Of a stretch of 64,000 nucleotides of DNA, positions 24,259 to 27,651 are shown in pieces (positions within the stretch are counted from its first letter, which is position 1; the number at the start of each line of letters is the position of its first letter). Source of the stretch: Escherichia phage mistaenkt; sequence record MN850587.1. One strand, 5' to 3'. Made by a program: the position numbers and the translations under genes. The notes under the pieces were generated by a model that worked only from the letters and a program-made list of their open reading frames with translations, did not search any database and was not told where the DNA came from.

Positions 24259-26460
24259 TTACGCCGTTCTAACCCATGCCATCAATCTGATAAACAAGTT
24301 CACAACACTGAATGCTGAACCAGAACCTGTACCACCAGTGTTACCACTAACTGTGTGGGTGTGAGCACCAATACCAACTGTGTGAGCATGGTTACCAGCA
24401 GAAGCAGCAGAACCACTTACAGAGTGAGTATGAGCACCAGTAGTGTTAGAGGTCTTCGTACCATAGTCAAAGCTACTCGTTGTAGCGGAGAAGCTGTGAG
24501 TGTGTGAAGGAATATGCCCTACAGATAATGTCACAGTGTCTGCACCACCAACTGACTTCACATCTGAACCATTCGCTGCACCGATTCTAACTGTTCTACC
24601 TACACCCTCATTCAGATACGTCCAAGTCATACCTGCAAGAGTTGTGTTAGGGTTCTGGTTAGTAGCAAACCATGTTACAATCCCAACTGGATAGACTTTC
24701 TTAAGGTCTGTTGAAGATGTAACAGCCGTAGCAATCTTCTGGTCAGTTTCTGCTTTGGTGTATGCACCAATTTCAGAAGGTGTTGGTTTCTGTGCTTCTG
24801 TATAAATCTTAGACCAATCTGCTTCAAAACCATAGCTATCCCTAGCCGACCTGTACCACATCCCACCATTTTTATAGTTGAATTTCAACTGAGCAGACGG
24901 TGTTGATGATGCACCCTGATACATATGGTAGACCAGTTGTGTTGAGCCACCAGTTGAAAATGTAACATTGTACAAACCTGTCTTGGCATTCCATGCTACG
25001 CCATCTCCACCATTCTGTTCAGTGGCATTGCCTGATGAGCCAGCAAGCATAAATCTAGAGTTAGCTGCTGTCTGTGTGAAGTATCTCGCATCCAAGTTAC
25101 CCCAATCAGAAGGTTTCACCTGTCCAGTAATCTGTAAAGATTTAGACAGAAGAATCTCATCAGACAAGTCAATTCTCGCACCAGTTAAGTAGTTATGGAA
25201 AGATGCAACCACAGAGCCATTTGTACCACAACCAACATACCACTTATTAGTGTTATCAGTGTTCTTTCCAACAATGTAAGAAGCATTGTTCTGGACTTTG
25301 CTGTAAATCCTTAAAGCTTCACCGTCAGACTGAATATTTTGTTGAAGGGTGAATGTGTTAGCTTCATTCTTCTTAGCAAGGTTAGCATATGTACCAACCA
25401 ACACATAACGAGAGTCAATGTTAGCCCAATCTGTAGGCTGAACCTGTCCAGTAATTGCAAGGCTCTTGTTCACTCTGACCATGTTATCAAGCAATACATA
25501 GGTATCATTTGAGATGTTTGTCAATACAACTGAGTTGCTACCATCTGCATAGTTACCTACAGCCCACTTCATAGAAGCATCTGTGTTCTGACCTTCAATG
25601 TAAAGTGCTTTACCAGTTGTCAAGTTCTTCAGGGTTAATCTTGCACCGTCACCAAGTAACGTTGTAGTCCCTCTGAAGGTGTTGTTTCCAGTAATCGTGT
25701 TAGCTGCTGCCAACTGAACAAATCTTTGGTCTGCTGCATCACGAGTATAGAATCTTGCATCGAAGTTTGCAAAGTCTGAAGGAACAACCTGTCCAGCAAC
25801 TTGAAGCTGCTTGTTAATACCTACAGAACCAGTACCAAGAACAATATTAGTATTCTGTTTGGTGTTTGCAATAGTAACGTCAGAACCAGAACTCAAGTTA
25901 CCAATTGTGAACCTTACAGCGTTTGCTGTATCACGACCTTCATAATACAATGCAGCCGCAGCAGTGTTCTTCAAAGTCAAACCAGCATTATCTGTCTGGA
26001 AAATCTGACTTGCTGTAAAGGTATTTTGAGTTCCCTTGATAGCAAATCTTGCATCGTTCTCATCATTAGTTCTCATCCCAAGTTCATTGGGAGATGGCTT
26101 ATTCAGAGTGTGATAAACAGTTGCACTTCTTGAAGCATCTGCAATAGTCAGTTTAAGACCATTTGCATTAAGCTTGAAAGTTTTTGCAGTGTCACCGAAG
26201 ACAATTTCGGAGTTACCTGTTGGGTCAAGTAAATCTTTTCCCCCATAGGTAAGCTTCACAATTCCTAAATTACCTGTCATGGTTCCACCAACTAATTGCA
26301 GAAATCTTTCCAGTCTAAATGATGCAAGGAAATCTGCATAAGTCATTCTACGGTCTTCATCACCTAGCATCTCAGTTCTTTTCTTAACTCTGACATGCAA
26401 TAGGTCATCAGAACGAATCTCACTAATCGAGTTTAATTCACTCAATTTAAATTCTGCCAT
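24259..26460 (-). CDS. Long tail fibre protein with His-rich (HxH repeat) C-terminal tip
   Basis: 733 aa, T/S/N/G-rich beta-type sequence; C-terminus ...[30 protein letters not shown]...WVRTA; last gene of tail module. Confidence 0.8.
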   Translation of the reverse strand: [733 protein letters not shown]

Positions 26461-26474
26461 TATACAATCCTCTT

Positions 26475-26495
26475 AAAAGGGGCTAAAAAGCCCCT
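26475..26495 (-). other. Hairpin GGGGC-TAAAAA-GCCCC in the gap between the two tail-fibre genes
   Basis: Inverted repeat read directly; attenuator or processing site. Confidence 0.3.
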
Positions 26496-26502
26496 GTAAT
26501 AA

Positions 26503-27651
26503 TCAAGCAGTTCTCTGCCATACATATAGAACAAATGATGGCTGTTCAATGTTAAATGCCTGACCAGAACCAGTTGAGCCAGTTGTACCAGAGTGAGAGT
26601 GTTCACCTGCACCTGTAACAGTTACAGTAGCAGTATGCGAGTGGCTACCAATTGATACAGAGTGGCTATGAGCACCAATCGCTACAGTATGAGTGTGCGC
26701 ACCAATCGCTACAGTGTGCGTATGGTTGTTAGCGGTTGTCAGAGTGGCTCTTGGGTCATAGTCTGCACCAACTACTGAAAGTCCCGGATGACTCCCTGGG
26801 TCATAACCACGGTTAATCCACGTTGTCTGAGTGAATCCAGCAGAACTCGTAGTTTTATTACCATAGTTAAATGATGATGTGGTCTTAGTACCATAATCAA
26901 ATGTTGTAGTGCTTCTATTCCCATAGTCAAATGAACTGATTGAAGCAGTTGCACCATGTGAGTGACCACCACCTGTAACGTACACTGAGTGAGTGTGAGC
27001 AGGGATGTTATTAGCTGTCAATGCAGCAGTCTGAGAACCAAACGTAGAACCTGCTGGTCTCGAAGCACTATCATAGCCTACAAGTGCTCTACCTCTTGAA
27101 ACTAGCTCCCAAGTACCTCCACAAATCAGGTAAGTAGATGGGTTAGCAGCATTCATAGACAAGTGGATAGTACCCACTGGATACGAAGCCTGAACAGCCC
27201 TGTATAGACTATTAACTGCTCTTGCTGTAGCATACTTATCAGCATCTTCATTATATGCGTTAGAGGCTAACCAGTTCTGAACATTACCCAAGCCAACTTG
27301 TGATTTAGTTGTATTGTGAGGGTTGTTCTTGTCATTAATGTGAGCCTGAATAAGTTGATTAACTTCATCAGAAGACATAATCTGTAAGTTCGCTCTTGCT
27401 TCAGCTACGTCAACGATATCTGATAAGTTATTTGCAGCGACAAGCTGTAAAGCGTTTAATACGTTACCTAACTCAACCTGAACCTTTGTAACACCGTGAG
27501 GGTTATTTCTCAAGGATGCGTGAGGGTCAAGTAATTGTTCAAGTGTACATCTTTTGTCTTCAATACCTTGTTTAAGGTGGAAGATATCACTTAGCTCAAT
27601 TGGTAACGACGCTTGAGGCAAGGCACTAATTTGAATTTCACCTACTGCCAT
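26503..27651 (-). CDS. Second tail fibre protein with His-rich (HxH repeat) C-terminal tip
   Basis: 382 aa; C-terminus ...[36 protein letters not shown]...YVWQRTA, paralogous to the tip of the 733-aa fibre. Confidence 0.75.
   Translation of the reverse strand: [382 protein letters not shown]

Follow-up and report, generated by a model that had tools for sequence, protein, structure and literature searches.

Two adjacent genes of Escherichia phage mistaenkt encode what look like tail fibres with the same histidine-rich tip, and this raises the question of what the tip is, how the two copies are related and whether each of them equips the virion with a receptor specificity of its own. The stretch of DNA analysed here (the window) comprises 64 kb out of the 86.7-kb genome of mistaenkt, a Suspvirus isolated from Danish wastewater with Escherichia coli K-12 MG1655 as host (PMC7552041). 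The DNA of the window shares 96.5% identity with Salmonella phage PC79-13 and 93% with Escherichia phage SUSP2, which both belong to the genus Suspvirus in the subfamily Ounavirinae. Positions 24259-27651 hold two consecutive open reading frames (ORFs) on the minus strand. One encodes a protein of 733 residues (24259-26460), which is the mistaenkt 'tail fibers protein' (100% identity), and the other a protein of 382 residues (26503-27651), which is 99% identical to the PC79-13 'tail fiber' and 60-85% identical to Felixounavirus fibres.

Many named Ounavirinae fibres align with the two proteins at 100% coverage (57-99% identity for the 382-residue protein and 55-100% for the 733-residue protein), and the two genes are located, as is characteristic of the fibre pair of this subfamily, next to each other and 3' of the genes for wedge 2, wedge 1 and the long tail fibre platform. 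Phage Bas63 (Escherichia phage JohannRWettstein) has the same arrangement, its short tail fibre (STF) gp26 and long tail fibre (LTF) gp27 being preceded by wedges 2 and 1, of 489 and 285 residues, and by the LTF platform (PMC12609058). Judged by synteny, by gene size and by their homology with other fibres of Felixounavirus, the genes in the window are the orthologues of Bas63 gp26 (382 residues) and gp27 (733 residues), and so they are the STF and LTF genes of a Suspvirus. The explanation that we favour, and consider very probable, is that both fibres carry tips of the T4 gp37 type and that the LTF gene is a deletion allele.

Homology of both fibre tips to T4 gp37

The initial annotation had pointed out that both fibre proteins end in runs of His-x-His (HxH) motifs and a W(V/Q)RTA terminus, that the 382-residue protein has the longer array, with repeated SSFDYG-type motifs in common with the 733-residue protein, and that the HxH repeats are comparable to those of T4 gp37; all of this is borne out. 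The LTF contains four HxH motifs and the STF seven, counts that were never attained in 5000 composition-preserving shuffles (means of 0.21 for the LTF and 1.10 for the STF, maxima of 3 and 6). The motif SSFDYGTK is present as one copy in the LTF (residue 662) and as three tandem variants, among them SSFNYGNK, at residues 239, 249 and 259 of the STF, and the chains end in MAWVRTA (LTF) and YVWQRTA (STF).

Both fibres match the crystal structure of the T4 gp37 tip (PDB 2XGF), with E values in phmmer of 1.7e-12 for the STF and 3.7e-9 for the LTF, which improve to 7e-28 and 7.5e-20 with family profiles. The HMMER alignments place HxH on HxH and SSFDYGTK on the SSFDYGTK of gp37, all in register, and a tblastn search of the whole window with T4 gp37 matched only the STF and LTF genes. 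A collar of the gp10/gp11/gp12 fold is recognised in both fibres by Pfam Gp10_C, and the STF profile matched the gp10 structures 2FKK and 5HX2 (E about 1e-9). In T4 gp37 the collar domain D10 consists of residues 811-881 and 1010-1026; the chain between them climbs the needle, reverses direction in the tip and comes back down (PMC6957217), and seven iron atoms are aligned along the needle (PMC6957217, PMC12609058). The tip region of T4 gp37 has exactly seven HxH motifs, the same count as the STF. Cryo-EM of Bas63 revealed a collar, a six-stranded HxH needle and a head in both of its fibres (PMC12609058). No chain of T4 gp12 was among the PDB matches at E up to 1 for either fibre, and the two fibres carry multi-site HxH arrays as gp37 does, unlike the single HxH zinc site of gp12; 'short tail fibre' is used here as a positional name and does not denote a relationship to gp12. 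By these alignments, the HxH arrays of both fibres are true homologues of the needle in which T4 gp37 binds iron.

A coupling between the two strands of the needle is apparent across 224 homologues, in which the number of 10-residue FDYG-type repeats on the ascending strand and the longest run of 9-residue HxH spacings on the descending strand are equal in 182 cases and are correlated with a Spearman coefficient of 0.93, a value inflated by relatedness as 120 of the 224 sequences are LTFs with one of each. The pairs of repeats and spacings are 1/1 in the LTF, 2/2 in T4 gp37, 3/3 in the STF of mistaenkt and up to 4/4 elsewhere, and the rule persists across independently varying STFs and prophage fibres. 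Such matching is what a hairpin needle with facing arrays would predict, and it thereby lends indirect support to a needle of this kind. The equal numbers of FDYG repeats and 9-residue HxH spacings, and the units that the ascending and descending strands have in common, may also aid the design of chimeric tips.

To relate the two tips to each other, we aligned their family alignments with hhalign. STF residues 153-382 were matched to residues 587-783 of the LTF family (586-733 in the window LTF) at 99.9% probability, with an E value of 1.8e-36 and 30% identity, while the N-terminal halves of the two proteins gave no alignment. It is extremely improbable that this likeness is purely compositional, a product of low complexity rich in His, Gly, Ser and Thr with no domain in common. 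The HxH and Ser/Thr/Gly stretches are certainly repetitive, and BLASTP with composition adjustment retrieves only 26% identity between the tips (E 2e-9). The profile-profile match, however, takes in the non-repetitive, His-free collar (YPVG..NP.T...G.TW...GR) and the C-terminal strand (GSG.AF....W.RTA), each fibre independently matches Gp10_C and 2XGF, and the HxH counts lie above those of every shuffle. The C-termini of the two fibres and of T4 gp37 can therefore be aligned to one another, and low-complexity bias, which the initial annotation had named as the alternative, does not explain their similarity. The same domain order, the same rare motifs and the adjacency of the genes could also be taken to mean that the two tips stem from a recent duplication, or from ongoing gene conversion, of one cassette within the genome. 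We regard this as very improbable, as the identity of the tips is only 26-30%, the best and longest DNA common to the two genes is 48 nt at 71-73%, the STF is about equally close to T4 gp37 (E 1.7e-12) and to the adjacent LTF (E 2e-9), and the same diverged pair of fibres is present across the Ounavirinae.

The low identity and the short length of shared DNA point to old paralogy and not to recent exchange within the genome, and on this comparison the two tips are old paralogues common to the whole subfamily, with no recent duplication or gene conversion. A different process is suggested by homologues that match the window STF at 92-99% identity over the N-terminus but at only 10-20% over the head, with intermediate values in the needle beside it. 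Recombination of the tip, as judged from these sequences, acts between phages and swaps head segments. The earlier proposal of a duplication or recombination of a tip cassette thus survives as head swapping between phages, but not as a recent event between the two genes.

A 147-nt deletion in the long tail fibre gene

The nearest LTFs, those of PC79-13, SUSP2 and phiSUSP1, share 91-92% identity with the LTF of mistaenkt and are 782 residues long. Both protein and DNA alignments reveal that the sole length difference is one in-frame gap of 147 nt (49 residues) in the window LTF. In the relatives a copy of GCTGCTTCTGCTGGTAACCA borders this gap at either end. The two copies are perfect and 147 nt apart in SUSP2; the second copy in PC79-13 differs by one base (G for A). 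Mistaenkt retains a single copy of the 20-nt repeat at the deletion junction (24389-24408, minus strand; codons A685-H691), and the flanks of this junction are collinear with the sequences that lie outside the two repeat copies in SUSP2 and PC79-13.

The first repeat copy encodes AASAGNH and follows the second ascending HxH, and the second encodes AASAG(N/D)H and precedes the second descending HxH. The missing 49 residues, NHSISWIGQNSTHYSGGGGGKVGVGPGYTDAGGAHTHTISGTAASAG(D/N)H, comprise the head plus one HxH on either side, and the number of HxH motifs is reduced from six to four. Because the identical repeat unit is present on both strands of the needle, the event is equivalent to the removal of parental residues 683-731, which are roughly centred on the GGGGG apex (707-711). 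From this near-symmetry, by sequence arithmetic, the ascending and descending segments that were retained would already have faced each other in the parental needle. The LTF of mistaenkt is a deletion allele that has lost its head between 20-nt direct repeats, and taken jointly with the homology to gp37 this is, with high probability, the best explanation of the locus. Its short HxH array results from the deletion, a point absent from the initial annotation.

Clustering of LTF homologues yielded 120 clusters, of which 117 have six HxH motifs, one has seven and two have four. The window LTF, with four HxH and no head, accordingly differs from the six di-histidine motifs and head that are typical of Ounavirinae LTFs. 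In a megablast search with the junction, none of 146 phage records spanned it in one piece. A pattern for the junction (FDYGTK, 21 codons, HAHxVGIGAH) gave zero matches in IMG/VR, JGI metagenomes and GTDB genomes; as the positive control, it found one match, in the window. The second case with four HxH is P0205 from a Logan assembly (locus L004), whose N-terminus is of the Felixounavirus type and whose tip ends in a different C-terminal sequence. As this tip belongs to another lineage, the case is an independent event at the same repeat. All other tips inspected, including those of prophage fibres with 6-13 HxH, have a segment of around 30-65 residues between the ascending and descending arrays. 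The headless LTF allele appears to be unreported so far.

Proposed architecture and receptor role of the fibres

On the basis of homology and of the published relatives, from which trimerisation, the six-stranded needle and metal binding are inferred, each fibre would be a homotrimer with its N-terminus on the baseplate and a receptor-binding tip of the T4 gp37 type at the other end. In the tip the chain would emerge from a gp10/gp12-like collar, run up a thin needle, turn at a small head and return down to the collar, so that the trimer would form a six-stranded needle. Each HxH would supply two histidines per chain, and the six of a trimer would form an octahedral site on the fibre axis for a metal ion, which in T4 is iron, with the 9-residue HxH spacing of the descending strand opposite the 10-residue SSFDYGxK repeats of the ascending strand. 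The tip of the STF would be complete, with seven predicted metal sites and a head of around 40 residues that is specific to its lineage. In the LTF, slippage or recombination between the 20-nt direct repeats would have excised 147 nt, with the head and the two adjoining HxH sites, and would have left the lower needle with four predicted sites, closed by a short Ser/Gly/Ala turn.

In T4 the head is the part that contacts the receptor (PMC6957217), and the STF head is by analogy the probable receptor-contacting apex of that fibre. Phages related to mistaenkt depend on the core of lipopolysaccharide (LPS) (PMC4690856, PMC12609058). As the STF carries the only complete tip on the virion, it is more likely than the LTF to act as the LPS-binding adhesin on K-12. 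Alanine substitution of the tip-proximal H929 and H931 of T4 gp37, and of many other residues of its tip, abolishes plaque formation (PMC6957217), and a needle without its head would therefore be likely to have lost the contact that it originally made with the receptor. The LTF stub may be inert, or it may still be assembled and use the domains of its shaft for binding. That one virion has two receptor specificities, as the initial annotation had suggested, is thus doubtful in mistaenkt, as the LTF head has been lost through the 147-nt deletion and only the STF tip is complete.

Several observations weigh against this picture. The AlphaFold2 models have a low mean predicted local distance difference test (pLDDT) score, 56 for the STF (alignment of 38 sequences) and 39 for LTF residues 470-733 (33 sequences), with the needles unstructured, although these are models of the monomer and as such uninformative on a trimeric needle. 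Foldseek found no match to the STF model in the PDB below E 0.3, T4 gp10 being ranked at the top without significance. T4 fibres depend on the chaperones gp38 and gp57A for folding; a tblastn search of the 64-kb window, which covered gp38 only, returned noise (E 0.13) and no homologue. Since the authors of the work on phage Sf14 also found no fibre chaperones (PMC11821841), folding of these fibres probably differs from that in T4. The essential role in T4 of the tip-adjacent histidines and of many tip residues, described above, also speaks against a functional headless needle. Finally, the headless allele is limited to a single genome record and one Logan contig of another lineage and is absent from the other collections searched. 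Deletions between direct repeats are a known failure mode of assembly, and the 147-nt gap might accordingly not be biological, whether because sequencing or assembly collapsed the repeat or because a minority variant became fixed while the phage was enriched on K-12. We judge this to be unlikely, as a repeat of 20 nt is far below read length and would not be expected to collapse, the frame is kept exactly with flanks otherwise collinear with the relatives, and the second occurrence, in a different tip lineage, is independent; a variant selected in the laboratory would still be a real and viable allele.

If the deletion allele is accepted as real, its product could have either of two fates, to each of which we give tentative credence at most. 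The headless LTF may be assembled and functional, a shorter metal-stapled stub cut cleanly where both strands carry the same repeat at a similar height. If so, the repeats would provide a built-in way to shorten a fibre tip or to switch off one adhesin, and the LTF head would be dispensable on rough E. coli K-12, which would make the STF or the fibre shaft the primary adhesin of Ounavirinae. It is also possible, though doubtful, that the headless LTF is unable to fold or assemble and that mistaenkt is effectively a short-fibre-only phage on its isolation host. The loss of plaque formation on substitution of H929/H931 and of tip residues in T4 (PMC6957217) is in line with such a defect, as is the variable occupancy of Bas63 particles, which bear from zero to six long fibres (PMC12609058), and the rough host K-12 MG1655 would offer the LPS core that relatives use (PMC4690856, PMC12609058). 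What argues for a stub that folds is that the gene is intact and in frame over 733 codons, that the same truncation arose twice and that the deleted stretch has the apex of the hairpin roughly at its centre, the retained segments being those that would face each other in the parental needle.

The fibre modules of mistaenkt and of the near-identical PC79-13, SUSP1 and SUSP2 differ mainly in the presence of the LTF head, and these phages therefore form a natural pair for asking which fibre sets the host range of Ounavirinae, a group widely used in the typing and biocontrol of Salmonella and E. coli.

Domain organisation, known systems and gene neighbourhood

The domains of the STF can be followed along the minus strand. 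The N-terminal part (residues 1-144; 27220-27651) contains the putative baseplate-binding region and shaft and is up to 99% identical among homologues that have unrelated heads. Two NNPHxxTKxQVxLGNVxN repeats (residues 49-66 and 109-126) are spaced 60 residues apart in the shaft (residues 49-126; window 27274-27505), and between them lies an NLSD..v.EAR.NL motif that has its match in a unit repeated six times in the solved structure of a 'short tail fiber gp92' (PDB 9ZD7). The ascending part of the collar (residues 145-217; 27001-27219) is recognised by Pfam Gp10_C (E 1.9e-18) and aligns with the C-terminal domain of T4 gp10 (2FKK) and the beginning of the gp37 tip (2XGF). The ascending strand of the needle (residues 218-269; 26845-27000) has HxH motifs at 219 and 230 followed by three 10-residue (S/T)(S/T)F(D/N)YGx(K/R)xx repeats, and the descending strand (residues 310-356; 26584-26724) has HxH at 310, 319, 328 and 337, at a spacing of 9 residues, and at 351; both strands were aligned to T4 gp37. 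A tandem DNA array with a 27-nt unit lies within the descending needle (26647-26718). Between the two HxH arrays, correctly placed by comparison with gp37, is the 40-residue putative head segment (residues 270-309; 26725-26844), for which the AlphaFold2 monomer did not resolve a fold. The head is hypervariable, with 5-22% identity in 35 of 37 aligned homologues whose N-termini reach 99%, and its cassette is confined to the Suspvirus lineage. The chain ends with the C-terminal return to the collar (residues 357-382; 26506-26583), which hhalign pairs with the LTF C-terminus and whose counterpart in T4 gp37, residues 1010-1026, belongs to collar domain D10 (PMC6957217).

The LTF, on the same strand, begins with a region (residues 1-140; 26041-26460) that is 80-100% identical in 31 of 32 aligned homologues and is assigned a role in baseplate binding from the Bas63 structure (PMC12609058). 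The shaft (residues 141-472; 25045-26040) consists of three repeat modules of around 110 residues, detected as three stretches of Pfam gp37_trimer (E 8.6e-52). Each module finishes with (I/V)(T/A)GQVxP(S/T)D(F/W)xNxDxR(Y/F) (residues 221-237, 336-352 and 444-460), and the repeat is also visible in the DNA (family D3, with spacings of 324 and 345 nt); there is a weak match to the T7 gp17 structure 4A0T. Residues 473-583 (24712-25044) form a domain akin to tail fibre protein S of phage Mu (Pfam gp37_C, E 9.6e-24; PDB 8JU3, E 2.1e-25), with residues 474-580 matching Mu S. This domain is 30-97% identical among homologues and is exchanged independently of the tip. From these matches the LTF upstream of its tip is a mosaic of three gp37_trimer modules and a Mu-S-like domain, the latter of which could be a second, lateral binding site. 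The Mu-S-like domain sits directly before the collar.

The ascending part of the LTF collar (residues 584-651; 24508-24711) was assigned from Pfam Gp10_C (residues 587-732, E 3.8e-7) and from the hhalign match to the STF collar. The truncated needle, without a head (residues 652-710; 24331-24507), aligns to 2XGF and contains HxH motifs at 653, 677, 691 and 700 together with the one SSFDYGTK. Pfam reports a Phage_fiber repeat (PF03335) at residues 696-708 (E 1.1e-5; score of 25.5 bits, the threshold being 20) and none in the STF despite the same motif. Motif and hhalign evidence define the C-terminal return to the collar (residues 711-733; 24262-24330).

Tips of the gp37 type on both fibres of Felix-O1-type phages are already published, for VpaE1 in 2015 (PMC4690856), for Bas63 in 2025 with its di-histidine count (PMC12609058) and for Sf14 (PMC11821841). 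The finding of such tips, in a genome that is itself public, is thus a correct rediscovery in a genus that has seen no study of its individual fibres, and the sole new point is the LTF deletion allele. The fibres of mistaenkt share with T4 gp37 (2XGF; D10 collar, D11 needle and head) the order of collar and needle with chain reversal, in the STF at a putative head, HxH motifs in register, SSFDYGTK, the 9-residue array HxHxVxIGxHxH and the gp10/gp12-related collar. T4 gp37 is, however, a protein of 1026 residues, the last of four in a kinked fibre, and requires gp38 and gp57A, whereas the tips described here are on single-protein fibres of 382 and 733 residues, with head sequences unrelated to that of T4 and, in the LTF, no head and four HxH.

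Closer relatives are Bas63 and Shigella phage Sf14, Felixounavirus members of the same subfamily studied by cryo-EM in 2025, which have a short and a long fibre with gp37-like di-histidine tips (PMC12609058, PMC11821841). Mistaenkt differs from them in being a Suspvirus, in the different cassette of its STF head and in having four instead of six HxH in the LTF, where the head is deleted. The C-termini of gp74 and gp75 in vB_EcoM_VpaE1, a Felix-O1-like phage whose receptor is the LPS core, are also both homologous to the T4 gp37 adhesin (PMC4690856), but this was established by sequence comparison only, and gp75 has 780 residues and a full tip (PMC4690856). The phage Mu S (8JU3) and T7 gp17 (4A0T) structures resemble the LTF shaft modules upstream of the tip, outside the HxH needle, and Mu fibres need a separate chaperone, which is lacking in Ounavirinae (PMC11821841).

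The deletion also fits an older idea, in which the His-box repeats are sites of recombination and here would have acted in a deletion. Tetart, Krisch and colleagues reportedly described (1996, 1998) the His-box (GxHxH) repeats of T-even adhesins as sites of DNA recombination at which small segments are duplicated or swapped. The deletion in the window likewise has a repeat of this kind at both of its ends, but the T-even events are duplications and swaps that alter host range and the event in mistaenkt removes the head. The His-box array GAHTH..SG....AG.HAH.VGIGAH is present in at least 120 IMG/VR contigs, mostly of prophage size (loci L005-L084), and the gp37-type needle motif is therefore common far beyond T4-like and Felix-O1-like phages.

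Upstream of the fibres and on the same strand are genes of 104, 285 and 489 residues, which we assign to the LTF platform (27654-27968), wedge 1 (27968-28825) and wedge 2 (28828-30297). The lengths and order of the two wedge genes are those of the Bas63 gp24/gp23 pair (PMC12609058), and platform and wedges are annotated as baseplate proteins in SUSP2. The gene order 489, 285, 104, 382 and 733 residues recurs in SUSP2, PC79-13 and the Logan locus L004. Beyond wedge 2 are sheath-initiator-like, spike and hub genes. The baseplate central spike (207-residue ORF, 30716-31339, minus strand) has a single HTH at residues 188-190. In the puncturing apparatus of Bas63 a di-histidine motif, H188/H190, is proposed to bind iron (PMC12609058), and from the identical positions the HTH of the spike is predicted to be a third HxH metal site in the virion besides those of the two fibres.

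Downstream of the LTF are two small membrane or holin-like ORFs, followed on the opposite strand by the genes for thymidylate synthase and dihydrofolate reductase. Directly 3' of the LTF is a membrane protein of 65 residues (23982-24179, minus strand), whose homologue at L004 matches Pfam Phage_PM2_Gpl. It is overlapped by a 124-residue ORF (the pair covers 23611-24179, minus strand), which combines a coiled coil with a membrane segment at the N-terminus and is annotated in SUSP2 as a putative holin. A tail-fibre chaperone downstream of the LTF was considered and rejected, as these two ORFs come next and the window lacks a gp38 homologue; they look like lysis genes and unlike a chaperone of this kind.

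Elsewhere in the window ARAGORN predicts 24 tRNA genes (47417-53618, minus strand), among them tRNA-His(GTG). Two of its calls (48431-48507 and 53300-53376) are missing from Rfam, which has two further calls that are absent from the ARAGORN list, one for a tRNA (53463-53534) and one for a partial tRNA-like element (52230-52283). The G+C content of mistaenkt is given as 47.2% in the table of the isolation paper (PMC7552041), against a mean of around 40% in the window and 39% in other Ounavirinae, and this entry is probably a typing error.

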